Positions 1,240 through 21,030 of a DNA stretch of 27,920 nucleotides are shown piece after piece. The translations under genes and the position numbers were made by a program. Location: NCBI GenBank assembly GCA_011051745.1, contig DRKO01000280.1:1-27920 (forward strand). The letters run 5' to 3'. Below the pieces are notes generated by a model. It was not told where the DNA came from. It saw only the letters and a program-made list of their open reading frames with translations, and searched no databases. The stretch's first letter is position 1, and every line of letters begins with the position of its first letter. The DNA is from Chloroflexota bacterium (GTDB lineage: Bacteria; Chloroflexota; Anaerolineae; Aggregatilineales; UBA3940).

Positions 1240-1279
1240 AAGAGAGTAACCCGGCCAGCGCAGGGCCGGGCCGTCTCTT
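1240..1279 (-). terminator. Probable intrinsic terminator downstream of the TSUP gene
   Basis: Inverted repeat AAGAGA..CCCGGCC / GGCCGGG..TCTCTT. On the minus strand it runs into a pyrimidine-rich tail (CTCTCTTCCTGTTT). Confidence 0.45.
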
Positions 1280-1348: not shown

Positions 1349-2092
1349 TTACCCCGCGATCAGCAACAGGCCGCCGATCGCCAGCAGCACAATAATGATG
1401 CGCTCGAACGTCTCTTTATCAACCCGCTCCGACATCCACTTGCCGATCCACACCCCGGCGGGCACAAGCGGCATCAGCCACGCGATCTGCCACAGGCGGT
1501 TGAAGTCGAACAGGCGGGCGTAGAAGTAGTAGGGCACTTTGATCCAGTTCAGGAGGAAGAAGAAGATCGCCGAGGTGGCGACAAAAACGCGCGGCGTGAC
1601 ATCCTGCATCAGCAGGTAGATGCTGACCGGCGGGCCGCCGGTGTGCGCCAGCGCAGAGGAGAAGCCGGTCACCGTACCGGCCAGCAGGCCGTGCCAGTCT
1701 TTCCCCTCATATTTTAGCGAGCCGAGGATGCGCTTCTCAAAAACCTTGTAAACGGTGAAGATCAGGACGATGATCCCCAGCGCCGTTCGCAGCGTCCCGG
1801 TGGGGGCGTTGGTGATGAACAGCGTGCCAATCGTCACGCCGAGCACCGAGCCGGGGATCAACAGCAGCACCAGACGCCGATCCCAGCGCCGCCAGTGCAG
1901 GGCCACGGCGAAGATATCGGCGAACATCAGAACCGGCAGCACCAGCCCGATCACCTGATCGGCGGGCATCACGAGCGCCATCATGGGCGTTGCCAGCGCC
2001 CCCAGAGACCCGCCCAGCCCCCCTTTTGAAAGGCCGATGAGGAACGCCACAACAGCCGTCATCGCGAAGAAGATGGTCAGGTTGACAGTCAT
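1349..2092 (-). CDS. TSUP (TauE/SafE) family membrane permease/exporter, 247 aa
   Basis: Very hydrophobic, with two-fold internal repeat motifs GLSKGGLGG and GFSSALAHTGGPP. ATG at 2092 (MTVNLTIFF) with AGGA upstream is preferred over the ORF-track start at 2188. Confidence 0.85.
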   Translation of the reverse strand: MTVNLTIFFAMTAVVAFLIGLSKGGLGGSLGALATPMMALVMPADQVIGLVLPVLMFADIFAVALHWRRWDRRLVLLLIPGSVLGVTIGTLFITNAPTGTLRTALGIIVLIFTVYKVFEKRILGSLKYEGKDWHGLLAGTVTGFSSALAHTGGPPVSIYLLMQDVTPRVFVATSAIFFFLLNWIKVPYYFYARLFDFNRLWQIAWLMPLVPAGVWIGKWMSERVDKETFERIIIVLLAIGGLLLIAG

Positions 2093-2183
2093 GGGAGCGA
2101 GCCGATCCTTTCGTGGATGGACAGGGCGGGGGGCGGAGGCACGGCGGCGGGGAGTGTCCCCTGCTTCAGGCCCCTTCCCGACG

Positions 2184-2217
2184 GGCAACGGGGACCGACA
2201 GCGCGGCCCCCGTTACC
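2184..2217 (-). other. 14-bp intergenic stem-loop after the creatininase-family gene
   Basis: Arms 2184-2197 and 2204-2217. Both non-Watson-Crick pairs are G-U on the minus (transcribed) strand. No U-tract follows. Confidence 0.6.
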
Positions 2218-2230
2218 GCATGGCAGCAGT

Positions 2231-3160
2231 TTACAGCACCCGATCCACAAACTCGCGGTTGTGCACCTCGACGGGCACGTTCATCAGTTCGAGCACGCCG
2301 CGTGCCACATGCTCGGAGAGACGGCGGAAGGCTTCCTCGCCCTTCTCTTTTGTCGCGCGGAGCGGGTTCCCGATCACGCCGGTCTCGATGAATTCGTGGT
2401 GATCCATCGGGAAGTGGAAGTACTTATAGCCCTCAAACTCAACGTCGGGCATGCCGTCCTTCTTCTCGAAGGATTTGGGCAGGTATTCGGGAATGTGAGC
2501 TTTGGTGAAATTCGCCCGCTCCATGCGGACCAGCCGCTCGTTCCAGGCCAGGTCCTGCGAGGTCTCCAGCTCGCTGGAGTGCCAGCCGGGCGTTTCCTCC
2601 CACGGGTTCTCCAGCAGGCCTTCAAGGACGCCGACGTAGTTCTCCATGTAGGGCTTGGCGAACCCGATCAGCGCTCCGGTTTCATAGCGCAACTTGCGTA
2701 GCAGGGGGTCAATGACCTTCACGTTGGAGCCGTGGCCGTTGATGAAGATCAGGCGGTTGAAGCCGTGATGGATCAGGCTGCGGCCCACGTCATACAGCAG
2801 GTTGAGCAATGTGGTGCTGCGCACGGTGATCGTCCCCCGACCCCCGCCCGGCGCGTACATGTGCTGCGGCGAGTAGCCCATCCAGATGGGCGGCGTGTGC
2901 AGCACGGCGATCATCTCAGCCACCCGCTTGGCGACCTCCCAGGCGGTGACGGTGTCAGTATAGAGCGGCAGATGCGGCCCGTGCTGCTCCAGGCTCGCCA
3001 TCGGGATCAGGATAACGTCCTTCTCCTTGAGGTACTCCTGGATGTCCATGTAGGTCAGGTCGCCCAAGTCCCAGGAGAGGAACTTCTTGCGAAACTCCTC
3101 GTCGCCCTCGGTCAGGTGCGGCAGGTCGCGGTATTTCTTGTTCCCGTTATCGTCAATCAT
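2231..3160 (-). CDS. Creatininase-family metal-dependent hydrolase, 309 aa
   Basis: Motifs EQHGPHLPLYTD, NGHGSN, HSSELETS and GVIGNP keep the binuclear metal ligands. ATG at 3160 with AGAGGAG upstream, overlapping the previous stop codon. Confidence 0.85.
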   Translation of the reverse strand: MIDDNGNKKYRDLPHLTEGDEEFRKKFLSWDLGDLTYMDIQEYLKEKDVILIPMASLEQHGPHLPLYTDTVTAWEVAKRVAEMIAVLHTPPIWMGYSPQHMYAPGGGRGTITVRSTTLLNLLYDVGRSLIHHGFNRLIFINGHGSNVKVIDPLLRKLRYETGALIGFAKPYMENYVGVLEGLLENPWEETPGWHSSELETSQDLAWNERLVRMERANFTKAHIPEYLPKSFEKKDGMPDVEFEGYKYFHFPMDHHEFIETGVIGNPLRATKEKGEEAFRRLSEHVARGVLELMNVPVEVHNREFVDRVL

Positions 3161-3173
3161 GGTGACCACTCCT

Positions 3174-4400
3174 CTAAAGCGATTCCATCATACTGATGAA
3201 CAGATCGGCCACTTCCCGGCCAAATTCCGGGTCATTCACGTGGCGTTCGAAGGTCCGAACAGGGATATCCTCCCGTATCTCGGAGCGCAGCGTCTCCAGA
3301 AACGCGCGGTCTGCCTCCGGGTCCCAGAAGGGGCCATCCGGCACGTTGGGGATGGAAAGCCCCTGTGTCGGAACGGCGATGATGACCGGGCCTTTCGCCG
3401 GATTGAGCCGCTCGGCGAAGATATGCCCAAGCTGGATCATCTCCTCGCGCGTGGCGCGGACGAGCGTATACTCCGGGTTGTGATCGTAGACGGGGCGACC
3501 CTGAAGCTCCGGCGGGATCGCGCCCGCATGGAAGACGCAGAAATCAATGCAGCCGGGCACGACAACCTGCGGCAGGCCCAGCGCCCCCACGCGCTTCAGG
3601 CGGTCGGGGCCGCCGTCGTGGATGCCACCCGTCAGGGGGTCGTATACCTCGTTGGTGGTGAAATCAATCACGCCGACGAACTGGCCCGCCTCGGCCAGCT
3701 CTTCCATCGCCGGGCCGCCGACGCCGTTCGAGTGGAAGATCACGGCCTCGTACCCGTGCTCGGCCAGCCGTTCTTTCAGCGCCATGACGGCCTTTGTGGT
3801 ATTCCCCAGCATGGTGACGGCCACGTAGCGGTCATCAGGGCCGGGGGGCGGCAGAACGTGGCCGTGCTCCACCATCCCTTTGAGAGCGGCGGCCACGTTA
3901 TCAAAGATCGTGCGGGCGATGGGGTTCAGGCCCAGAATATCCACAATGGAGTGCACCACCATGATGTCGCTGGTTCCGACCAGCGGATCAAAGTAGTGCT
4001 TCCCGGAGGCGATCGGCGACACCAGCACTTTGGGCACGCCAACCGGCAACTGCATCATGGCCGCCGCGCCCATCACCGCGCCTTCGGCCCCGCCCATGCT
4101 GACGATGGCGTCCAGCCTGCCCTGCTCGTAAAGCTCCAGGGTGAGCTTTTTGAGCGCCTCGCGCATCCCTTCGACGGCCTTCCCCCGGCTGCCCGCGTTC
4201 TGCAGGGCCTCGATGGTCGTTCCGCCGTAGCGGGCCGCCTCGGCCCGGCTGATGTCGGGCGTGATGCCGATCGGCTCGCCCAGGATGCCGGAGTCGACTA
4301 CCGTCGTCTCCAGGCCGAGCGCCTGTAGCTGATCGCGCAGGTATGCGATCTCCGGCCCTTTGGTGTCGAGGGTTCCGATTACGACAACGTTCTTACCCAT
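3174..4400 (-). CDS. Tm-1-like ATP-binding domain protein (UPF0261), 408 aa
   Basis: Motifs VVVIGTLDTKGPE, LPVGVPKVLVS, SIVDILGLN, GVIDFTTNEV, HNPEYTLVRAT and PFWDPEAD. ATG at 4400 with GGAGG upstream. Confidence 0.85.
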   Translation of the reverse strand: MGKNVVVIGTLDTKGPEIAYLRDQLQALGLETTVVDSGILGEPIGITPDISRAEAARYGGTTIEALQNAGSRGKAVEGMREALKKLTLELYEQGRLDAIVSMGGAEGAVMGAAAMMQLPVGVPKVLVSPIASGKHYFDPLVGTSDIMVVHSIVDILGLNPIARTIFDNVAAALKGMVEHGHVLPPPGPDDRYVAVTMLGNTTKAVMALKERLAEHGYEAVIFHSNGVGGPAMEELAEAGQFVGVIDFTTNEVYDPLTGGIHDGGPDRLKRVGALGLPQVVVPGCIDFCVFHAGAIPPELQGRPVYDHNPEYTLVRATREEMIQLGHIFAERLNPAKGPVIIAVPTQGLSIPNVPDGPFWDPEADRAFLETLRSEIREDIPVRTFERHVNDPEFGREVADLFISMMESL

Positions 4401-4421
4401 ACAGCAACCTCCGGGCAACTG

Positions 4422-4481
4422 AGAGGGGGGCTGCGAAGTAAAGGCTCCGGTGTGCCGGACTACTTCGAGTTGCCCCCCTCT
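4422..4481. repeat. Nested 60-bp inverted repeat
   Basis: AGAGGGGGGC/GCCCCCCTCT (10 bp perfect) encloses CGAAGTA/TACTTCG and TCCGG/CCGGA. Confidence 0.7.
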
Positions 4482-4498
4482 GACGGTGAAAATGGGGA

Positions 4499-5386
4499 TT
4501 AGCTGATCAACGGAAGGAGCGTCTTGGCGGTTTCCTCAACCAGCCAGCTATAGAACTCCTCCGTCAGCAGGCTGGAGCCGTGCTCCTCGATGAACTTCTT
4601 CTGTTCGGGTGAGATGTCTACCGGGTTGGTCTCGATGGCGTTGGGGTAGGGGTTGGCGGGCGTGCGGTCAATGGGGGCGACGAACTCAACGGTCAGCGCA
4701 CCATCATAGCCGATCACCTTCAGCGTGCCGACCAGCTTCAGCCAGTCCCAGTGCCCCATGCCACAGGCCATGCGGTTGGTATCCGCGACGTGGAAGTCCA
4801 CCAGACGGCCCTTTGCGCTCAGGATGGATTCGTAGGGGTCGGCCTCTTCGATGTTCAGGTGGAAGGCGTCCAGGCAGACGCCGCAGTCATCGGCGACGGC
4901 CTCCGCCAGCGCCAGCGCCTGCGCCGCCCGTGAGCAGAAGTAGGTCTCAAAGCGGTTGATCGGCTCGATGGCAAGCTGGATACCCTCTTTCTTGCCCCAG
5001 TCGTAGCATTCCTTGAGGCTGTCAACCGCCCACTCCCACTCTTCCTCCGGCGTGCCATCGGGCACGATCTTGCCGACGGTGGCCGGAACGATGGTCATGA
5101 TCTCGCCTTCCAGTTCCTTGACCATCGTGATGCAGTCCTTGACGTACTGCACCGACTTCTCGCGCTGGGCCTGATCCTTGGCGACCAGATTACGATCGCC
5201 CAGCATCAGCGTTACCGATCCCCAGCACCGGATGCCGTTGTCCTTGAGGATTTTACGGACTTCCTTTGTGTCGTAGGTGTACGGCTCACCGCTGATCTCG
5301 ATGCTCTCGTAGCCATACTTTGCCAGCCGCCTGACGGTTACTTCGATTGGCTCCGCCCTCATCCAGTTGTGCATTGACAGATGCAT
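4499..5386 (-). CDS. Sugar (phosphate) isomerase/epimerase, xylose-isomerase-like TIM barrel (ketose 3-epimerase/TM0416-like), 295 aa
   Basis: Catalytic and metal motifs EPINRFE, LDAFHLNIEE, FHVADTNR and GYDGALTVEF. SD AAAGGAGG upstream. Confidence 0.85.
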   Translation of the reverse strand: MHLSMHNWMRAEPIEVTVRRLAKYGYESIEISGEPYTYDTKEVRKILKDNGIRCWGSVTLMLGDRNLVAKDQAQREKSVQYVKDCITMVKELEGEIMTIVPATVGKIVPDGTPEEEWEWAVDSLKECYDWGKKEGIQLAIEPINRFETYFCSRAAQALALAEAVADDCGVCLDAFHLNIEEADPYESILSAKGRLVDFHVADTNRMACGMGHWDWLKLVGTLKVIGYDGALTVEFVAPIDRTPANPYPNAIETNPVDISPEQKKFIEEHGSSLLTEEFYSWLVEETAKTLLPLIS

Positions 5387-5458
5387 TTGGTCCCTCCTTT
5401 GGGCAAAAACTACACAGAAACCGTATTCACGCAGAACGCGGGATCGCGTCCCTGCCAG

Positions 5459-5498
5459 GTAAGCCCCTCTGGCGGCGGGGCGAACCGCCGGAGCTTAC
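5459..5498. other. Intergenic stem-loop after the Fe-S protein gene
   Basis: GTAAGC/GCTTAC outer stem and TCTGGCGG/CCGCCGGA inner stem. Confidence 0.5.
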
Positions 5499-5505
5499 TC
5501 ACGTC

Positions 5506-6603
5506 CTAAGCCAGATGATCGGCCAGCAGCTCGTACAACCCCTGCACGCGCAGGCCGAACCGTTCCGCGTGCCGGGCGAGGTGACTCAACGAACCGGCGT
5601 CCTCGGTGACGACCAGCCGTGCCCCGACCCCGGCGGCGTCTGCCAGCCGCGAATACGTCAGGTGGCGGGCGATGTGCGGTTCGGTGAACTGGAGGGCGAC
5701 GTTGCCGCAGGGGTGCGCTCGCTCGCGCCGCCAGAATAGCTCCCGCGCCGGGGCGGGCAGCACGGCCTCCAGAAGCGCACGGGGGGCGTCGTAGCGCGTC
5801 GTGACGCGCACCGAGTGGGTGGGGTCTACGTAGGCGCAGGGTGTCCCGTCGGCGGCCTTCCGAAAGGCCAGAGCGCCTTCTCTGAGCCGCTCCGCCAGAA
5901 AGGTGACCACCTCCTCCAGAACTACGCCGGACGGCCATTCGATCCCCAGCCGCTCATCGTACAACTGGCTGAAGGTGAAGAAATCACCCGGCCCCAGCAC
6001 CAGCAGGCGGGTTGCGCCGGTGGCCTCAAGCTCGGAGAGCGTCTCTCCGGCCAGATCGCGGGCCGTCGAGGGGAAGCCCAGCGAACTTGCCAGATAGCCG
6101 TTGTTGCGCCCCACGCCGATCAGAACCGGCTCAACGCCCACCGCTTTGAGCAGTTTCAGGGCCGCCTCCAGCGCGTCCGGCCAGAGGTAACGCGCCTCGT
6201 CTCCTACAAAGAGGGCGACTTCCCCCTGCCCCTCGACGGGGGCGGGGGACTGCTGTTCGTAGGGGTTTCCCCACTCCTTCAGGGCGCGGTGAGTCTCGTA
6301 CACCACCGCCGGGGCCAGGTCCCGCGCGGCGACATCTGCCCGTGCCGCCGCGATGGCCTCCGGCAGGGGTTGATCAGTGACGCAGTGGGCGCGGCAGGTT
6401 CCGCAATCGGAGCAGCTATACAGGGCCTGCACGGTCTCCTCGTCCCACGCCAGCAGGCCGCGCCCGACCGAGGCGATCATCAGCGCCCAGCCGTGCGGCG
6501 TCAGCGACTCCCTGCGGGTGACATGCCCCACCGGGCAGACATGGCGGCACATCAGGCAGTAACGGCAGTTCTCAGTCGTCAGGATGACGTTTTCAAGTGG
6601 CAT
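5506..6603 (-). CDS. (Fe-S)-binding protein: 2x[4Fe-4S] dicluster plus degenerate CCG (GlpC/HdrD-like) domains, 365 aa
   Basis: CRYCLMCRHVCP and CSDCGTCRAHC at the N-terminus. The remainder has the spacing of two CCG domains but almost no Cys. ATG at 6603 with GGAAGGA upstream; the ORF-track start at 6825 overlaps the upstream gene. Confidence 0.8.
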   Translation of the reverse strand: MPLENVILTTENCRYCLMCRHVCPVGHVTRRESLTPHGWALMIASVGRGLLAWDEETVQALYSCSDCGTCRAHCVTDQPLPEAIAAARADVAARDLAPAVVYETHRALKEWGNPYEQQSPAPVEGQGEVALFVGDEARYLWPDALEAALKLLKAVGVEPVLIGVGRNNGYLASSLGFPSTARDLAGETLSELEATGATRLLVLGPGDFFTFSQLYDERLGIEWPSGVVLEEVVTFLAERLREGALAFRKAADGTPCAYVDPTHSVRVTTRYDAPRALLEAVLPAPARELFWRRERAHPCGNVALQFTEPHIARHLTYSRLADAAGVGARLVVTEDAGSLSHLARHAERFGLRVQGLYELLADHLA

Positions 6604-6635
6604 GGTGTCCTTCCGCTTTCGTGCCGGGGCCTGTA

Positions 6636-8075
6636 TTAGAAGCCAAACCCGACTTTGCCGGGGTTCATGATCCCGTTGGGATCGATCATCCGCTTGAGCC
6701 TCAGCAGGAAGGGCCAGGCCGAGCCGTACTGCCTGCGCATGTAGCGGGCCAGCTTCAGCCCCACCCCGTGATGCTCGTTGATCATGCCCCCGTTTGCCAT
6801 CACGGCCTGCATGGCGGCGTTCCACACCCGATTGTGCAGCCGCAACGCCTCGCGGGCGTCCGCCGGCGGCTCCTCGATGATGAAACGCGAATACAGCATC
6901 ACGCCCCAGTGGAACCAGTGCGAGAAATGGCCGATGAAGCGCACGTTCCAGTCGGCGAAGCCCTCCTCGACGGCCTTCTTCTCAGCGTAGTAGACGGCTT
7001 CGATCCTGTCGTAGGTGGTGACGGTTTCGGTTGTGCCGTACATCCAGGGCAGCTTGAGGTTCTGCGGCGGGTAGTAGAAGTCGTAGCGGTGCGCCCACCA
7101 CGCCTCGCCCGGCTCGCGCCCCAGATCACGCGCCCCCAGCCGGGCGCAAATCTCCATCGCCTTCTGCTCCTGAAGGGCGGCGATGTCCGGATCGCCATCG
7201 AAGCCGAGCACCATGTACGCGCCGTCAAAGTCGTAGCCGAGGATTTTCCGAACGCGGGTCAGCGTGGAGGCCGGATCGTACAGCCGGATGACGAAGGGAT
7301 CGAGGCGGCGGGTCATCATCAGGCGGCCTGCTTCCAGCGCGTTGTGCAGGTCGTCGAACAGCACCGCCCGCAACAGGCGGGCTTCCGGCAGGTAGTCCAC
7401 CTGCATGGTCGCCTCGGTGATGATGCCGAACGTCCCCTCCGCCCCCAGAAACAGGCGGAAGAAGTCCGGGCCGGAGGCGTGCTGCGGAACCGGCGGGGTG
7501 TGGATGATCTCGCCGGTGGGCAACACAACTTCCATGCTGAGCACCAGGTCTTCGGCTTTGCCGTACTTGGTGCTGATCGTCCCCGTCCCGCGCGGAGCCA
7601 GATAGCCGCCCAGCGTGGCGCAGTTGGCGGAGGCCGGATAGTGGGGCAGCGTCAGCCCCTTTTCGTTGAGCGCCCACTCAAGCTGTGTCCCGATGATCCC
7701 GGCCTGCGCGGTGACCGTCAGGGATTTCTCGTCAATCTCGATGATCTTATCCAGCCGCTTTGTGTCCACCAGAATGCCGCCAAAGATCGGCAGCGCTCCG
7801 CCCTGCGTGCCCGATCCGCCGCCCCAGGGGACAACCGGAATACGATACTTGTTGGCGATCTCCATGATCTCGGAGATTTCTTCCGCCGAGGCGGGGTGGA
7901 CGATGTAGTCCGGCGTCCTTAACGGCCTGCCGCGATCCAGCCACATCTGCGGCATCCACGACCAATCGGTCGAGTAGACCAGCTTATCGCTCTCCTCAAC
8001 CGAGATGAAGGCCGGGCCGACGATCTCCTCCAGTTCGCTGCGGATCATTTCAGCCTGGAACAGGGCACGCTTCAC
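6636..8075 (-). CDS. FAD-binding oxidoreductase, VAO/PCMH fold, alkyl-DHAP-synthase (ADPS/YgcU)-like clade, 479 aa
   Basis: Motifs PWGGGSGTQGG, HYPAS, TLGGYLA, GAEGTFGIIT and C-terminal EHHGVG...DPNGIMNPGK. GTG start with AAGGAG upstream. Confidence 0.85.
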   Translation of the reverse strand: MKRALFQAEMIRSELEEIVGPAFISVEESDKLVYSTDWSWMPQMWLDRGRPLRTPDYIVHPASAEEISEIMEIANKYRIPVVPWGGGSGTQGGALPIFGGILVDTKRLDKIIEIDEKSLTVTAQAGIIGTQLEWALNEKGLTLPHYPASANCATLGGYLAPRGTGTISTKYGKAEDLVLSMEVVLPTGEIIHTPPVPQHASGPDFFRLFLGAEGTFGIITEATMQVDYLPEARLLRAVLFDDLHNALEAGRLMMTRRLDPFVIRLYDPASTLTRVRKILGYDFDGAYMVLGFDGDPDIAALQEQKAMEICARLGARDLGREPGEAWWAHRYDFYYPPQNLKLPWMYGTTETVTTYDRIEAVYYAEKKAVEEGFADWNVRFIGHFSHWFHWGVMLYSRFIIEEPPADAREALRLHNRVWNAAMQAVMANGGMINEHHGVGLKLARYMRRQYGSAWPFLLRLKRMIDPNGIMNPGKVGFGF

Positions 8076-8100
8076 AGCCGACTCCTTGTGTATTGTCTCT

Positions 8101-8117
8101 CTGGCGGGAACCGCCAG
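8101..8117. other. Short stem-loop immediately after the MocR stop codon
   Basis: CTGGCGG-GAA-CCGCCAG, a perfect 7-bp stem. Confidence 0.5.
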
Positions 8118-8118
8118 C

Positions 8119-9594
8119 CTACTCCTGCGGCACGTCGGGATGCGGGGGCATCCAGTAATCCCCTTCGCCCGTCTGGGCCTCGATGACGCGGCTCAGCACA
8201 ACCACCGCCTCGCTGATGACGCGCTCCGGCTGGCTCACAAAGCAGATGCGCAGGTGATCGTTAGAACCGGGGGCCACCAGGAATGCGTCGCCAGGCGTAA
8301 ACGCGAACCCGCGCCGCAGCACCTCGCGGGAGACAACGGTCGCATCAATGCCGGGTGGGAGAGTGACCCAGCAAGCGAATCCGCCTCTGGGATGAGTCCA
8401 GGTGACCCCCGGCGGCATATGCCATCGGAGATCGCGCAGGAGCCGGTCGCGGCGTTCCCGGTAGATGGGGATGACCCGCCGCAGATGGCGTCTGAGCGCG
8501 CCGCTCTGGATGAAGTTGGCGACCGCTCGCTGCACAAAGGGCGGCCCGCAGAAATCAGCCGCGCGGCGCAGCGATACCAGTTGCCGGTGCAACGGCTCCG
8601 GCGCGACGACGTATCCCACCCGCAGGCCGGGCATCATCACTTTGGACATGCTGCTGATGTAGATCACCTGCTCCGCTTCGTCCAGAGATTTCAGCGCCGG
8701 GGCCGGGTCGCCGTCATAGGCAAGCTGGCCGGATGAGTCGTCCTCCACCAGAATCAGGCTGTAACGGCGGGCCAGCGCCAGCAACGCCCTGCGCCGCTCC
8801 GGGGACATCAGCGTGCCAGTGGGGTGGTGGAAGTTGGGGACGGTGTGGAAGAAGCGGGGGCGGTACTGCACGATGATCCGCTCCAGCTCATCCAGACGCG
8901 GCCCGTGTTCATCCAGCGGCACGTCAACGGCCCGCACGTGATAGGTGCGCAGGCTGTTGATCAGGCCGAGATGAGTGGGCCGCTCGACGACCACCACGTC
9001 GCCGGGGCGGGTGAGGGCCTGCGTGATGAGCGAGATTCCCTGCGTGACGCCGGAGGTCACCAGAATGTTATCCGGCATGGCCTCAACGCCGCGCTCGCGC
9101 AGCAGGTCTGCCAGAGCGGTTCGGAGGGCAGGATCGCCCTGCGGCCAGCTATAGCGCAGGAGGGCGGCACTTTCGGCGCGGAGCCTGTGCAGTTCGCCCC
9201 AGAACTCACCCGCCGGGAACAGTTCGGGGTCCGGTTCAGCGTATGCAAACGAGCGCACGATGGCAATCTGGTTGATCTTCGGCTGGTCATCCAGCACACT
9301 GTCCGGCGTCGAGGAATGCCCGACGGAGTCGATCAGCGCCTCTGGCCGGGCCGTGCGGGCGACGAATGTCCCTTTCCCGATAACCGTCTCGATCCAGCCC
9401 TGCGCCCGCAGTTCATCATAGGCCGTCTGCGCTGTCAGGCGCGTTACGCCGAGTTGCTCGGCCATCTGCCGGATGGGGGGGAGCTTGGCTCCCACAGGCA
9501 AGCGGCCCTCCCGTATCTGTTGCCTGATCTGCGCGGCGATCTGCCGGTATAGAGGCTGTGGAGCCTCTCGGTCAACACTGAATGGAAACGGCAC
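8119..9594 (-). CDS. MocR/GabR-family transcriptional regulator (GntR wHTH + PLP-dependent aminotransferase-like domain), 491 aa
   Basis: N-terminal PLYRQIA...LPPIRQMAEQLGVTRLT...GKGTFV. C-terminal PNFHHPTG, EDD, and SSMSKVMMPGLRVGY with the PLP lysine. Confidence 0.92.
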   Translation of the reverse strand: MPFPFSVDREAPQPLYRQIAAQIRQQIREGRLPVGAKLPPIRQMAEQLGVTRLTAQTAYDELRAQGWIETVIGKGTFVARTARPEALIDSVGHSSTPDSVLDDQPKINQIAIVRSFAYAEPDPELFPAGEFWGELHRLRAESAALLRYSWPQGDPALRTALADLLRERGVEAMPDNILVTSGVTQGISLITQALTRPGDVVVVERPTHLGLINSLRTYHVRAVDVPLDEHGPRLDELERIIVQYRPRFFHTVPNFHHPTGTLMSPERRRALLALARRYSLILVEDDSSGQLAYDGDPAPALKSLDEAEQVIYISSMSKVMMPGLRVGYVVAPEPLHRQLVSLRRAADFCGPPFVQRAVANFIQSGALRRHLRRVIPIYRERRDRLLRDLRWHMPPGVTWTHPRGGFACWVTLPPGIDATVVSREVLRRGFAFTPGDAFLVAPGSNDHLRICFVSQPERVISEAVVVLSRVIEAQTGEGDYWMPPHPDVPQE

Positions 9595-9634: not shown

Positions 9635-9677
9635 GGGCACAGGCATATGCCCCTGACAGAGACACTGAAAGGACAAT

Positions 9678-9790: not shown

Positions 9791-10825
9791 TCAGCCTCCC
9801 GTCAGTGCGCTCAGGATCAGCCAGTCGAGCTCCTCGTAGTCGCGGGCGGCGATCAGTTCGTTGATCCTCTCCCGATCCAGTGAGCGCACCACCTCGACCA
9901 GCCGGAGGAACATGTGCAGGCTGTTCCGCAGGTGCTTGGTCGCCAGTTCTGCCGGCTGGGTGCGGAGGGCCTTCACGTCCAGCCCGACCATCCCCTTCTC
10001 GTAGAAGCGGTTCTCATCCAGCACGCGCACCTGATTGAAGGCCCGTCGCAGGTCTACCGAGCCGAAGGAGCGATCCTGATCGAACTTCAGGCCGTTCTGA
10101 TCGTTCAGGTGGACGCTCCAGAGCTTATCGAAGGCCAGCGCGAAGCTCATCTCGTCCGCCGGATCAAGCCCGGCCAGAACGGCGTGCGCGGTCTCGACCA
10201 GCGCCCCCACACGCGAAGGGTCGCTGGCCTGAAAACCGAGCGCCAGCGCGTGCCCGATGGTCGGGATGTACGCCAGGTCCATCGGCTCGTTGGGCTTGGG
10301 CTCAATGGCGATGCGAAGCTGCGGGTCGTATTCCAGCAGCGTGTTGACGGCCTCCAGAAGGCGATGGGTGGCCTGCACGGCGTCTTTGGCCTCGCGCATA
10401 TAGGTTCCTTCACGGGCCAGCCAGAGCACCATCAGGTTTGTGCCCAGCTCACGCCCGATGTCGGCGGCCTTTTTGGAGCGCTCGATGGCGTACTCACGCG
10501 CTTTCGGGTCGTTGGAGGTAAACGCCCCGTCAATCGTCATCGGGTGTTCCCACAGGCGCGGCGCGACAAACTCAGCCACCAGCCCGTGATCCTCCAGCCT
10601 GCGGCGCATCGCCCGGGCCTGCTTCGCGATCTCTGAGGCCGAAAGATCGTCAAGGTCAGGCACGGCGTCGTCGTCGTGGAACTGGACGGCGTCAAAGCCC
10701 AGATCGTTGAAGACCTTCAGCTTCTCGTCAAAGGTCAGGGAGGGACGCACGGGCGGCCCGAAGGGATCGGCCCCCTCGTGGATATTCCACGGCCCGAACG
10801 AAAAGCGATACCCGTATTTCTCCAT
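9791..10825 (-). CDS. Divergent xylose-isomerase-family protein, substrate unknown, 344 aa
   Basis: Motifs FSFGPWN, FHDDD, DGAFTSND, WLAREG, IEPKPNEP, ETAH, HLNDQ and FDQD align with XylA. ATG at 10825 with AAGGAGG upstream. Confidence 0.85.
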   Translation of the reverse strand: MEKYGYRFSFGPWNIHEGADPFGPPVRPSLTFDEKLKVFNDLGFDAVQFHDDDAVPDLDDLSASEIAKQARAMRRRLEDHGLVAEFVAPRLWEHPMTIDGAFTSNDPKAREYAIERSKKAADIGRELGTNLMVLWLAREGTYMREAKDAVQATHRLLEAVNTLLEYDPQLRIAIEPKPNEPMDLAYIPTIGHALALGFQASDPSRVGALVETAHAVLAGLDPADEMSFALAFDKLWSVHLNDQNGLKFDQDRSFGSVDLRRAFNQVRVLDENRFYEKGMVGLDVKALRTQPAELATKHLRNSLHMFLRLVEVVRSLDRERINELIAARDYEELDWLILSALTGG

Positions 10826-10914
10826 CGTTGCCTCCTTGTGGAGCGCGGGCACAGACCCGGCGGGAGCCTCCCGCGCTCTGGAAGTGTGTTCAGATTTCTT
10901 TCAGCGCACCGCCA

Positions 10915-17803: not shown

Positions 17804-19003
17804 CTAGTATTTGATATCAACCTGCTTCCGCGCTTCCGCCGATTCGAGGATCGCATCGCAGATCACGGCTGCCCGGTAGCCGTCCTCAAAGGTCGCGCCG
17901 TAGGGAGCAACGTCTTTATCGTTCACGATGCAGTCCAGGAAGTGGGTGATCTCATGCACGAAGGTGTGCTCCCACCCGATGATGTGACCGTGCGGCCACC
18001 AGTTCTCCCACCAGGGGTGGTAGCTCTCCGTGATCAGCGCGTCGTGGAAGCCCTGAGTCTCCTTCGGCTCCTCGCCCACCCAGAAGACTTCCAGTTCGTT
18101 CATCCGCTCCAGATTGAAGCGGATGCTGCCCTTCTCGGCGTTGATCTCGAAGCAGTTGTAGTTCTTCCGACCGGCGGCGAAGCGCGTGGACTCCAGCGTG
18201 CCGATGGCGCCGTTCTCGAACTCAATCGCCGCCACGAAGGCATCGTCCACGTCCACCTTGCCAACCCCGCTGCCATCGGGCAGGGGACGCTCCTCAATGA
18301 AGGTGCGGGTCATGGCCGCCACGCTCTTGATGCCACCAACGAGGAAGTGGGCCAGGTCAATGATGTGTGCGCCCAGGTCGCCGAGCGCACCGCTGCCCGC
18401 CACTTTCTTGTCCAGCCGCCATATCTTGGGCGTGCCGTAGTGGGGCATGATCCACTCCTGCAGATACACCGCGCGGAAGTGGTAAATCTGCCCCAGCGCG
18501 CCGCTATCAATCAGGTTCCTGATCTGGCGCACAGCCGGGACGAAGCGGTAGTTGAAGGCCACCATGTGCTTGACGCCCGCCTTCTGCACGGCATCGAGCA
18601 TCTCTTTCGCCTCTGCGGCTGAACGGGCGAGCGGCTTCTCGCACAGGACGTGCTTCCCGGCCTGGGCCGCCAGAATGGACGGCTCGGCGTGGGTGTCGTT
18701 CGGGCCGCCGTTGTCGAAAAGCTGGACCTCCTCGTCCTCAAGCATCTTGTGCCAGTCGGTGTAGTATCTGGCATAGCCGTAGCGGCGGGCTGCCTCGGCG
18801 ACGGCTTCTTCGTTCCGCCCACAGATGGCAACCAGCCTGGGGATGGCCGGGGGCGGGTACATCATGTAGGGAATCTTCTTGAAGGCGTTGGTGTGGGCTT
18901 TCCCCATGAAGGCGTACCCCAGCATCCCGACGCCGATCTCAGGAATTTCTCCGCCGGCCCTGGCTCCGGCCATCGCCGTGAACCCGGTTTCTTTCTCACT
19001 CAT
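17804..19003 (-). CDS. Gfo/Idh/MocA oxidoreductase, levoglucosan-dehydrogenase/glycoside 3-dehydrogenase-like, 399 aa
   Basis: Motifs GYAFMGKAH, CEKPLAR, VAFNYR, YLQEW, AGSGALGDLGAH, VDVDD and TRFAAGRKNY. ATG at 19003 with GGAGG upstream. Confidence 0.88.
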   Translation of the reverse strand: MSEKETGFTAMAGARAGGEIPEIGVGMLGYAFMGKAHTNAFKKIPYMMYPPPAIPRLVAICGRNEEAVAEAARRYGYARYYTDWHKMLEDEEVQLFDNGGPNDTHAEPSILAAQAGKHVLCEKPLARSAAEAKEMLDAVQKAGVKHMVAFNYRFVPAVRQIRNLIDSGALGQIYHFRAVYLQEWIMPHYGTPKIWRLDKKVAGSGALGDLGAHIIDLAHFLVGGIKSVAAMTRTFIEERPLPDGSGVGKVDVDDAFVAAIEFENGAIGTLESTRFAAGRKNYNCFEINAEKGSIRFNLERMNELEVFWVGEEPKETQGFHDALITESYHPWWENWWPHGHIIGWEHTFVHEITHFLDCIVNDKDVAPYGATFEDGYRAAVICDAILESAEARKQVDIKY

Positions 19004-19109
19004 GAGGCCCTCCAAACTCTACACAGACAGTCAGCCACTCAATCGGGGCAGGCGGGGCGGGGAAGACGCCCGCCCCCAGCCTGCTCAGGTAGCGCGGATA
19101 AGCGCCCGC

Positions 19110-20114
19110 TCACTCTTCGGCGGCGAAGGCGGCGTCGAACGCAACCGCCGAGGGGGTGAAGTCCTGCTTCCGGATCATCTGCAGGGCTTCGGGAGCGCCC
19201 CACTCGCGATCCATGCCCGTATCCTCCCACTCGATTGAGAGCGGGCCGTCGTAGCCGACGCGGTTAAGGGCGCGGATCAGCTTGTCCCAGTTCACATCGC
19301 CCCGCCCCGGCGAGACGAAGTCCCACCCGCGACGGTGGTCGCCGAAGTCAAGGTGTGAGGAGAGGATGCTGTTGCGCCCGGTGAGCTGCACCCGCGAGTC
19401 CTTCACGTGGACGTGCCAGATGCGATCTCCGAACTCGTTGATGAACTCAACCGGATCAACAAACTGGTGGATGAAGTGGCTGGGGTCAAAGTTGAAGCCG
19501 AAAGCGGGATGATGGTTGATCGCCTCCAGCGCACGGTGGGCGGTGATGATGTCATAGGCGATCTCGGTCGGGTGCACCTCCAGCCCGAACTTGATGCCGT
19601 TCTCCTGGAACACATCCATGATCGGCGTCCAGCGGGCGGCGAAGTCCTCATAGCCCTTGTTGATGTCATCCTGCGTGGTGGGCGGGAAGAAGTACAGGTT
19701 CTTCCACACGCTGCTGCCGGTGAAGCCGTTGACGACCTTCACGCCGAACTTCCTGGCGGCAATGGCGGTGTTCTTCATCTCCTCGGCGGCACGCTGGCGC
19801 ACGCCTTCCGGATCGCCGTCGCCCCAGATGCGATCGGGCAGGATGCGGCGGTGGCGCTCATCGATCGGGTCATCGCAGACGCACTGCCCGACCAGATGGG
19901 TGCTGATGGCGAAGCACTTGAGATTGTACTTGTTCAGGATGTCCCAGCGGCTCTGGACGTAGCTATCATCTTCCAGGGCTTTATCCACCTCGAAGTGGTC
20001 ACCCCAGCAGGCCAGCTCCAGGCCATCGAATCCCCATTCGCTGGCCTTTTTCGCCAGGTCCTCCAGAGTCAGGTCAGCCCATTGTCCCGTAAACAGAGTA
20101 ACCGGTCGTCCCAT
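19110..20114 (-). CDS. Xylose-isomerase-like TIM barrel (IolE / keto-sugar hydratase-eliminase-like), 334 aa
   Basis: Motifs [34 protein letters not shown] and SIEWED. SD AAAGGAG upstream. Confidence 0.85.
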
Positions 20115-20149
20115 CTTTCCTGCTCCTTTGCTCGGTGGGTCAAACCATC

Positions 20150-20183
20150 AAAAAAGCTCTGCTTTATGGATATAAAGAGAGCT
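20150..20183 (-). terminator. Intrinsic-terminator-like hairpin with U-tract, overlapping the ketose 3-epimerase stop codon
   Basis: Minus strand AGCTCT-CTTTAT-atcc-ATAAAG-c-AGAGC-TTTTTT. Confidence 0.6.
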
Positions 20184-21030
20184 ACGCTAAAAGTTGCTTC
20201 AGGAACTTCAGCCCATCCTCTGCCAGAGCGTCCTGGCTGGGAGCGAGCGAGCGCCAGATGGCCGCCGCGCGGGCAATGCTCTTGACCTTGGCGGTGAACG
20301 ATTCGATCACGACCGGGCCGTCGTAGTTGATGTCCTTCAACGCCTGAGCGACATCCTCCCAGGGCACATGCCCAGAGCCCGGCGCACCGCGATCGTTCTC
20401 ACAGGCGTGCACATGGCGCAGACGCGGGCCGGCGGCGCGGATCGCATCCCCGATGGATTTTTCTTCGATGTTCATGTGGAACGTGTCCAGCATGATCTGG
20501 CAGGATGGGTGATTGACCCTGTCAATGACCTCAAGGGCCTGCTCCGCCAGATTGATGAAGCTGGTCTCAAAGCGGTTGAGCGGCTCCAGACAGAGCACAA
20601 CGCCGTGCTCGCCGGCATAGTCGGCCAGCCTGCTGAGCTGCTCGACCAGCAGATCGGTGTCGCGTGCCCGCTCCTCCGGTGTGGCCTGCCAGGTGCGGCC
20701 AACCGCCGAGTAGAGCGGCCCGACCAGATTCGTCGCCCCGATCGTCTGCGCGGCCTCGATGCAGCCCCGGACGTAGTTCATGCCGTTTTCCCGGATCGAC
20801 TCGTCAGGGTGGATCAGGTCGCGGTCCGGCCCCATCGCGGCGCAGACGCTCACCCCCAGCCCGTGCTCCCGGATGATCTCCGCGCCGCGTGCGTGATCCA
20901 GATCGTCCAGACTTTCGAGGGGGACTTCGATCCAGTCGAACCCCATTCCGGCCACCTTTGGAGCCAGCTTCTCAAGCTCCGCAGTGGTAAGCGGCGAGGT
21001 CCAAACCCAGGTGTTCACCCCGAATCTCAT
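20182..21030 (-). CDS. D-tagatose/D-psicose/L-ribulose 3-epimerase-family protein, 282 aa
   Basis: Motifs EPLNRFETS, LDTFHMNIEE, HACENDRG and VIESF, i.e. the E/D/H/E metal set of ketose 3-epimerases. Confidence 0.88.
   Translation of the reverse strand: MRFGVNTWVWTSPLTTAELEKLAPKVAGMGFDWIEVPLESLDDLDHARGAEIIREHGLGVSVCAAMGPDRDLIHPDESIRENGMNYVRGCIEAAQTIGATNLVGPLYSAVGRTWQATPEERARDTDLLVEQLSRLADYAGEHGVVLCLEPLNRFETSFINLAEQALEVIDRVNHPSCQIMLDTFHMNIEEKSIGDAIRAAGPRLRHVHACENDRGAPGSGHVPWEDVAQALKDINYDGPVVIESFTAKVKSIARAAAIWRSLAPSQDALAEDGLKFLKQLLA

Follow-up and report, generated by a model that had tools for sequence, protein, structure and literature searches.

A conserved sugar-type breakdown module combining a UPF0261 protein with a creatininase-fold hydrolase in at least four bacterial phyla

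Seven minus-strand genes lie together at positions 1349–9594 of contig DRKO01000280.1 (C280) of a Chloroflexota bacterium, and they raise the question of which of them form a unit and what that unit does. The window, meaning the whole stretch of DNA that was analyzed, is the entire 27.9-kb contig, which comes from a 3.4-Mb metagenome-assembled genome (MAG) that is 90% complete; matches to the window DNA were hydrothermal vent metagenomes, with no RNA run among those listed. A first-pass annotation had read the seven genes (a MocR regulator, an ADPS-like flavoprotein, an Fe-S protein, an epimerase, a Tm-1-like UPF0261 protein, a creatininase-family hydrolase and a TSUP membrane protein) as one self-contained catabolic operon. 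Domain and family-model searches bore out all seven genes with their positions and families, and the reported gaps of 13–138 bp were reproduced (43, 32, 119, 98, 13 and 138 bp from mocR to the TSUP gene) with gene starts chosen as those having a ribosome-binding site. The limits of the unit turned out differently: the conserved unit is four or five genes, is present in at least four bacterial phyla, and constitutes an uncharacterized sugar-type breakdown module.

Nearly every gene of the contig lies on the minus strand, so co-directionality cannot set operon limits, and conservation in other genomes alone can. Relatives were collected in two sets, the regions surrounding UPF0261 orthologs in 12 related genomes and 12 more loci found by a hydrolase search of a collection with one genome per species, and all window proteins were compared against each locus of both sets; locus counts below refer to 25 loci. 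Four core genes, encoding an ADPS-like FAD oxidase, a TIM-barrel epimerase, a UPF0261 kinase and a creatininase-fold hydrolase, were clustered in 25 of 25 loci and lay within a few kb at every locus with enough sequence, the oxidase being found in every informative locus. The same core was recovered by de novo clustering of all open reading frames from the 25 loci. The expectation that the genes recur together was thus borne out for a unit of four or five genes but not for all seven, as MocR is missing from 22 loci and TSUP from 23.

The core is carried by several families of Chloroflexota (Caldilineae, Aggregatilineales and the window's own order among them), by Rhodothermales and Acidobacteriota, and by actinomycetotal lineages comprising Acidimicrobiia, Microbacteriaceae (including the cultured Antiquaquibacter soli), Nocardioidaceae and Gaiellaceae. 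Two genomes, G030 and G036, hold an unbroken, single co-directional array of an ABC importer, a TIM barrel, an LgdA-like dehydrogenase, a second UPF0261 gene (UPF0261b), a PEP-hydrolase-like gene, the epimerase, the first UPF0261 gene (UPF0261a), the hydrolase and the oxidase. On the window contig, the minus-strand order is a ROK regulator, a CUT1 ABC importer, two TIM barrels, a levoglucosan-dehydrogenase-like Gfo/Idh/MocA enzyme, a small 4-TM protein, xylA, xylB, a PfkB kinase, a DeoC-type aldolase, a second Gfo/Idh/MocA enzyme, a xylose-isomerase paralog, the seven genes and a WD40 protein. The xylose-isomerase paralog (9791–10852; xylA model, 221 bits against 447) is the immediate upstream neighbor of the oxidase, or of MocR, in most genomes of the family, with a gap to the oxidase of 43–147 bp where the two abut, and for this reason it probably belongs to one transcription unit with the oxidase in those relatives. 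The core is accordingly not the self-contained module first proposed: in most relatives it sits directly 3′ of this paralog and is linked to a gene set of the 3-keto-sugar type, and in the window it is a branch of a larger sugar island that fills the contig rather than a stand-alone operon. The earlier statement that the combination matches no characterized pathway agreed with our literature search, in which no paper describing this gene combination or cluster was found. Likewise, close characterized orthologs were lacking, every NCBIfam equivalog score falling far under its cut-off with the sole exception of MocR against the PdxR model.

The best conserved gene of the core is the creatininase-fold metal hydrolase (2231–3160, minus strand; PF02633), which is 60–81% identical across four phyla and belongs to a subfamily of 2127 protein clusters at E ≤ 1e-60. 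It matched PF02633 over profile positions 2–236 of 238 with 196 bits against a gathering threshold of 31, placing it in the creatininase fold, and the E-x-H...D and GHG-x-N motifs were invariant among its orthologs. Its scores against functional models were all well below the cut-offs: 113 bits for creatininase TIGR04448 (cut-off 235), 97 for MftE (172) and 91 for IolN NF041098 (245). Creatininases in the Protein Data Bank (PDB) aligned with it mainly at residues 35–164. The annotation "creatinine amidohydrolase" that the protein carries in these genomes is almost certainly wrong.

Only 13 bp away lies the gene for the UPF0261 (Tm-1/MarK family) protein (3174–4400, minus strand), which contains both family domains (PF06792, 175 bits; PF23189, 237 bits) and scored 439 bits against 335 for NF002674. 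Its solved relatives are Tm-1 (209 bits) and MarK (9mpy; 203 bits in a full-length alignment). The first-pass annotation held that UPF0261 had no assigned bacterial reaction; this is outdated, as MarK of Novosphingobium aromaticivorans was described in 2025 as a kinase of phenolic ketones that converts ATP to ADP, the first catalytic activity of the family (PMC12624787). The window protein shares with MarK the two-domain architecture and retains the ATP-site Lys of the GTxDTK motif (IGTLDTKG in the window; K16 in MarK, K20 in Tm-1), along with equivalents of MarK H304, G195 and F283. Its H229 aligns with MarK H219, which hydrogen-bonds a substrate oxygen, and the equivalent His may be the phosphoryl acceptor. 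The aromatic-ketone pocket of MarK is in contrast not preserved, H348 being replaced by Pro357, T196 by Asn206 and I285 by Val295. Retention of the ATP-site Lys together with the altered pocket suggests that the window protein is probably an ATP-dependent kinase, and the natural reading is that it would act on a substrate other than that of MarK, which works on phenolic ketones beside a biotin carboxylase pathway, whereas the context in the window is of the sugar type. The second UPF0261 paralog, accompanied by a PEP-hydrolase-like TIM barrel, occurred in at least eight loci. The window genome has its own second UPF0261 pair on contig C292 (L106; 72–3281, 3373–4254 and 4223–4993), where the UPF0261 gene is cut by the contig end and the pair stands beside a 1069-aa protein with Ser/Thr protein kinase and SBP_bac_5 solute-binding domains.

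The third core protein is a xylose-isomerase-like TIM-barrel epimerase/isomerase (4499–5386, minus strand; AP_endonuc_2). Scores of 134 bits with the IolO model NF041099 and 114 bits with the psicose epimerase model were far below the cut-off of 300 that applies to each, and PDB matches were to D-tagatose 3-epimerase (99 bits) and TM0416 (82 bits); by these comparisons, the protein appears nearest to ketose 3-epimerases and IolO.

The fourth is an FAD-linked oxidase of the ADPS/YgcU-like clade (6636–8075, minus strand; Pfam FAD_binding_4 and FAD-oxidase_C), whose family otherwise contains D-2-hydroxy-acid dehydrogenases and ADPS. Its best solved relative was alkyl-DHAP synthase (ADPS; 2uuu, 202 bits), of the same two-domain VAO-type fold, followed by D-lactate dehydrogenase at 140 bits, so the description as an ADPS-like flavoprotein stands. 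The motifs H-x-S-H-W and N-[DE]-H-H-G, which are shared with ADPS, were invariant across both clades of the oxidase. In contrast to ADPS, the catalytic Tyr (SHTY/QTYD position) is not conserved, being Phe in the window oxidase and variably F or Y among orthologs, and the HHH loop reads [DE]HH in the orthologs, with the first His changed to Glu or Asp. A true ADPS function was ruled out on the catalytic Tyr position.

One of the two oxidase clades is accompanied by a small Fe-S partner (5506–6603, minus strand, with 6603 as the true start; Fer4_8), and this gene occurred only beside oxidases 75–83% identical to that of the window and was absent where the oxidase was 40–47% identical. As had been noted from the window alone, the protein has a degenerate CCG region: two CxxCxxCxxxC ferredoxin motifs are intact and are followed by only 2 Cys in the subsequent ~290 residues, all cysteines of the CCG motifs are gone, and Pfam detected only Fer4 domains. 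Among eight orthologs, all of them likewise devoid of CCG cysteines, the only invariant cysteines were C13, C16, C19 and C74 (three leading cysteines of motif 1 and the final one of motif 2), which are predicted to be the ligand set for one cluster in a two-cluster ferredoxin fold, and the second motif was lost in three orthologs (G016, L026 and L027); the subunit looks like one in the course of being lost. Pairing of the oxidase with a ferredoxin-motif subunit recalls GlcD/GlcF, and more broadly the GlcDEF or D-lactate dehydrogenase flavoenzymes that have Fe-S subunits of the GlcF/GlpC type; however, the oxidase scored 178 bits against a cut-off of 568 for the glcD model TIGR00387, no GlcE is present, and the partner lacks CCG cysteines and has one invariant cluster.

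The genes linked to the core point to sugar chemistry. At 17804–21030 (minus strand; assigned by family models and PDB comparison), outside the seven genes, lie a levoglucosan-dehydrogenase-like Gfo/Idh/MocA enzyme and two TIM barrels. The Gfo/Idh/MocA enzyme (17804–19015) matched the LgdA model NF052479 over its full length with 386 bits, under the cut-off of 650, and PDB 6a3f with 322 bits, compared with 130 bits for IolG. The first TIM barrel (19110–20114) scored 472 bits with Streptomyces 2zds, whose title "putative DNA-binding protein" is probably a misnomer, and 139 bits with the 2-hydroxy-3-keto-glucal hydratase 8ro4; the other is psicose-epimerase-like. Of 21 informative loci, 14 carried orthologs of the LgdA-like gene and the first TIM barrel beside the core. 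The published levoglucosan and 3-keto-glycoside pathways (LgdA/B1/B2/C; AtOGE/AtHYD) proceed by oxidation, elimination, hydration and reduction; their operons include an ABC importer, as do the window genes, and a keyword search of the papers returned no mention of a creatininase-fold or FAD enzyme in the described neighborhoods. The ABC importer's binding protein matched sugar-binding proteins of solved structure only weakly and hence gives no clue to the substrate. No aminotransferase, deaminase or other nitrogen-handling enzyme was conserved beside the core in the 25 loci, which speaks against the N-containing substrate proposed at first and leaves MocR as its one pointer.

Further companions of the core, lacking in the window, are a LarA-family gene, found in seven loci at ~4 kb or less downstream of the hydrolase, beyond a further TIM barrel and in some cases a further Gfo enzyme, and FCD-type GntR regulators, also in seven loci. 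LarA is a family of 2-hydroxy-acid racemases and epimerases. The window genome has a LarA gene on contig C388 (1187–2443), 79% identical to the LarA that lies 3′ of the module in relatives. The neighbors of more distant hydrolase cousins include TTT carboxylate transporters, an enolase-superfamily gene, a DeoC aldolase and Zn-dehydrogenases.

The reading that we favor, to which we give a probability of roughly 40%, is that the hydrolase opens an oxidized sugar or cyclitol to a hydroxy or keto acid, that this acid is oxidized or epimerized, and that UPF0261 phosphorylates the product before aldol or decarboxylative cleavage. The core would act downstream of levoglucosan-dehydrogenase-type Gfo/Idh/MocA dehydrogenases and their TIM-barrel partners; an imported neutral sugar, anhydrosugar or cyclitol would first be oxidized to a keto, dicarbonyl or lactone form. 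This oxidized compound would be opened hydrolytically by the creatininase-fold enzyme, and the 2-hydroxy-acid function of the resulting acid would be oxidized by the FAD enzyme, with electrons leaving via the Fe-S subunit and, in relatives, a LarA-type 2-hydroxy-acid epimerase working on the same pool. The TIM barrel may then epimerize or isomerize next to the carbonyl, UPF0261 may phosphorylate the product with ATP as donor, and an aldolase (such as the DeoC-type enzyme of the island) or a decarboxylase would deliver central metabolites; both the order of the steps and the substrate are what we infer. A free 2-hydroxy or keto acid as intermediate is suggested by the flavoenzyme family, LarA, the FCD-type regulators, and the carboxylate transporters, enolase-superfamily gene and aldolase genes beside the cousins. 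To our knowledge, IolN, which opens a cyclic 1,3-diketone, is the only creatininase-fold enzyme known from carbohydrate catabolism.

The proposed order of chemistry is that of the acid-sugar pathways with DUF1537 kinases (Ltn2D or D-erythronate 2-dehydrogenase, OtnI, OtnK, OtnC), whose logic is dehydrogenase, isomerase, kinase and decarboxylase or C-C cleavage and whose OtnI-type TIM barrel is of the same superfamily (PMC12994016). They differ in that the window kinase (UPF0261) and dehydrogenase (a flavoprotein, NAD-dependent there) are non-homologous to theirs, in that the OtnI model scored only 44 bits against 325, and in that those pathways include no hydrolase. The class II aldolase/adducin gene beside UPF0261 in Thermus presumably belongs to the family of OtnC.

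Several observations weigh against the favored reading. IolN (91 bits) is not a closer match to the hydrolase than creatininase (113) or MftE (97). The oxidase resembles ADPS, whose chemistry on a phosphorylated ketone is non-redox, more than it resembles D-lactate dehydrogenases, so that it could follow the kinase in the pathway. Two non-consecutive steps do not account for the close, near-invariant pairing of hydrolase and kinase. A search of the 90%-complete assembly gave no LarC (PF01969), which the nickel-pincer cofactor of LarA requires. Among 41 relatives, DUF1537 kinases occurred in 0 of 13 module carriers and 4 of 28 non-carriers; the direction fits an acid intermediate, but four genomes are too few to carry weight. 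The cousins, those in Thermus included, are only 39–51% identical, and their TIM barrel is not orthologous.

Among the alternatives, an oxidative cyclitol route of the Thermotoga type survives best, although we regard it as rather unlikely. In this scheme, a Gfo/Idh/MocA enzyme would form an inosose, the FAD oxidase a diketo-inositol, an IolN-like ring hydrolase 5-keto-L-gluconate and an IolO-like epimerase D-tagaturonate, with UPF0261 as an added kinase step. The myo-inositol pathway of Thermotoga maritima (IolG, IolM, IolN, IolO; TM0411–TM0416), in which IolN opens an oxidized ring to a keto acid, likewise combines a creatininase-fold hydrolase and a xylose-isomerase-like epimerase with sugar dehydrogenases, an ABC importer and a ROK regulator. 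Apart from IolN and IolO, no characterized pair unites both folds in one sugar operon, and both models do match the window proteins (91 and 134 bits), TM0416 being a PDB match of the epimerase. The island is flanked by an ABC importer and a ROK regulator as in Thermotoga, and its PfkB kinase scored best with the IolC model (178 bits). The PPi-dependent kinase of the Thermotoga pathway we take to be TM0415; PMC5931981 describes this kinase as a PPi-dependent enzyme of the ribokinase family. However, the scores are far under the IolN and IolO cut-offs of 245 and 300, the hydrolase scored higher against creatininase and the epimerase against tagatose/psicose 3-epimerases, the linked dehydrogenase resembles levoglucosan dehydrogenase (386 bits) much more than IolG (130 bits), and the Thermotoga pathway has neither UPF0261 nor an FAD oxidase/Fe-S pair. 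As to whether the module replaces the classical inositol enzyme IolD, the two showed no clear complementarity in the 41 relatives (both, 2; module only, 11; IolD only, 9; neither, 19).

A different use of the hydrolase, which we consider unlikely, would build on the linked LgdA-like and hydratase-like genes. The creatininase-fold enzyme could be a β-dicarbonyl (retro-Claisen) hydrolase breaking the carbon chain of the 3-keto sugar delivered by the LgdA-like dehydrogenase and the hydratase, in place of reduction to an ordinary sugar, after which the FAD oxidase, the TIM barrel and UPF0261 would take the acid to triose phosphate. As an example, we propose that open-chain 3-keto-glucose would give a four-carbon acid sugar and a two-carbon aldehyde.

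There is a similarly slim chance that UPF0261 acts first, on the sugar or keto-sugar, and that the flavoenzyme, the "sugar phosphate" TIM barrel and the hydrolase then work on phosphorylated intermediates. The flavoenzyme may in that case perform ADPS-like carbanion chemistry, for instance cleaving an ether or ester bond beside a ketone. Consistent with this, the oxidase scores best with ADPS, an enzyme that acts on a phosphorylated ketone (202 versus 140 bits), shares the H-x-S-H and H-H-G motifs with it, and is associated with genes that handle anhydro- and 3-keto-sugars, in which ether bonds lie beside a ketone. The replacements of the catalytic Tyr and of the first His of the HHH loop argue against it, as do the Fe-S partner, which implies real electron transfer, and LarA and the FCD-GntR regulators, which point to free hydroxy acids.

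A further explanation, quite improbable, concerns the constancy of the hydrolase-kinase pair, in which UPF0261 and the creatininase-fold protein form one ATP-driven ring opener: the kinase would activate an enol or amide oxygen and the hydrolase open the ring, like the kinase and lactamase components of 5-oxoprolinase, and the UPF0261b/PEP-hydrolase-like pair would be a second system of the same design. The two genes are indeed adjacent at every locus, and the pair persists while all other partners change (Thermus, P0126 and P0129). UPF0261 paralogs have another hydrolase-like barrel as their partner, and in plant Tm-1 both of these parts are fused (PMC5028733). The group that MarK phosphorylates is an enol-like phenolic OH. 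Adjacency is nevertheless equally expected of consecutive steps, MarK works alone as a homodimer (PMC12624787), and some hydrolase cousins occur without UPF0261.

The MocR-type regulator (8119–9594, minus strand; Pfam GntR helix-turn-helix (HTH) and Aminotran_1_2 domains) had been taken as the head of the operon and part of the module. Apart from the window, its orthologs lay directly upstream of the oxidase only in G018 (67% identical) and G016 (63%), that is, in three of nine genomes of the family and in none of 16 loci outside it, and we conclude that MocR is a lineage-specific addition and not part of the conserved module. In G016, the gene preceding MocR differs from that of the window, which suggests that MocR travels with the oxidase. 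In other loci, FCD-GntR, DeoR or ROK regulators lie nearby, and in G019 an FCD-GntR gene occupies the exact slot held by MocR in the window. Like GabR, PdxR and rhizopine MocR, the protein combines an HTH with a fold-type I PLP domain and retains the PLP lysine of the SxSK motif; it passed the NCBIfam PdxR model NF052282 (359 bits, cut-off 320) and failed that for rhizopine MocR (256 bits, cut-off 650). A regulator of the PdxR type would respond to a B6 vitamer and not to a pathway substrate. A PdxR would be expected to lie with pdxS/pdxT; in contrast, no PF01680 (pdxS) match was found in the 90%-complete window genome, and mocR adjoins no B6 gene and is co-directional with a catabolic gene 43 bp away, making the label "PdxR" doubtful. 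The regulator is probably autoregulated and would control this transcription unit.

A 12-nt pattern, GTGWCWCYGTCA, occurred upstream of all three orthologous mocR genes: in the window as GTGTCTCTGTCA (9654–9665, minus strand, 60 bp upstream of the mocR start), in G018 (L111, 1315–1326), and twice in G016 (L112, 3054–3065 and 3078–3089, 24 bp apart). The three upstream regions are otherwise unalignable, this box alone being shared, and no occurrence was found in the other 117 loci; it looks like a candidate operator for MocR autoregulation. The pattern was not enriched genome-wide (5 copies versus 2.9 expected), which rules it out as a genome-wide regulon marker and gives no evidence for a wider MocR regulon.

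The TSUP/TauE-family membrane protein (1349–2092, minus strand; PF01925) had been assigned the transport of the substrate or a waste anion. In G011 and G012, its ortholog (52–70% identical) lies directly 3′ of an aldehyde:ferredoxin oxidoreductase (AFOR) gene, ~8 kb past the hydrolase and before WD40 genes, and the gap from AFOR to TSUP in relatives is 1–37 bp (L014, 1264–3087 and 471–1262; L015, 17777–19999; L107, 85–1533). In the window, TSUP and WD40 are present, and AFOR and the intervening genes are missing; TSUP thus abuts the hydrolase because of a rearrangement shared only with L026, the one other locus where it directly follows the hydrolase. With AFOR as its conserved partner, synteny rules out TSUP as a pathway member, and it is a bystander of the core.

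The original proposal of a self-contained seven-gene operon for an amine-bearing or otherwise N-containing cyclic compound, with MocR-PLP sensing, is consequently very improbable: the PLP lysine of MocR, its position upstream of the oxidase in three genera despite a differing upstream gene, the conserved motif before mocR, the prevalence of amidohydrolases among creatininase-fold enzymes and one 50%-identical cousin beside a DegT-type aminotransferase speak for it, but MocR and TSUP are missing from most loci, TSUP belongs with AFOR, no nitrogen-handling enzyme is conserved with the core, and MocR scores as PdxR-like (359 versus 320).

Clusters of distant cousins were seen elsewhere. Plasmid pTF19b of Thermus thermophilus TF19 (AP031324.1; L116, 5642–14688), a genetically tractable organism, has one arm with a creatininase-family gene, a Tm-1-like gene, a class II aldolase/adducin gene and a TTT transporter, and a divergent arm with GntR, Zn-dehydrogenase, CBS and TIM-barrel genes; in Thermus strain AA1-1 (L109), the Tm-1-like gene is interrupted by a transposase. 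At 39% identity for UPF0261 and 46% for the hydrolase, and with an unrelated TIM barrel, the Thermus cluster was ruled out as an ortholog of the module. On a contig of GCA_038880635.1 (L118, 595–8201), a 50%-identical hydrolase is found with a DegT-type aminotransferase, a histidinol-dehydrogenase-family gene, a metallo-β-lactamase-fold gene, UPF0261 and an MFS transporter, a variant context that may involve an amino sugar.

At the start of the window, 3′ of the seven genes, the WD40-repeat β-propeller gene (1–1140) runs off the contig, and paralogous WD40 genes lie 3′ of TSUP in G011 too. A GC-rich hairpin of 9 bp (1248–1272, minus strand), which had been described as terminator-like and closing the unit, does fold 3′ of TSUP; however, it has a weak U tail, was absent from the list of a consensus terminator scan, and lies in a region that folds no better than shuffled sequences (z = −0.8), and it is a weak terminator candidate.

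New here are the status of MocR and TSUP as local add-ons, the candidate MocR operator, the progressive decay of the Fe-S partner, the link of the module to LgdA-like and hydratase-like genes, and the LarA and FCD-GntR evidence pointing to an acid intermediate. UPF0261 spans bacteria, archaea and plants (tomato Tm-1), and its sole known reaction comes from a laboratory-evolved enzyme; in the module, a UPF0261 kinase has a constant hydrolase neighbor and a defined catabolic context, and the module is abundant, with more than 2000 hydrolase clusters. The cultured carrier Antiquaquibacter soli and the tractable Thermus thermophilus with its cousin cluster offer experimental entry. If retro-Claisen cleavage is what the hydrolase performs, it would give 3-keto sugars a new fate and UPF0261/Tm-1 its first physiological role of the sugar type. 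Solving the module would assign three poorly understood families at once and could show how 3-keto or oxidized sugars are channeled to central metabolism.

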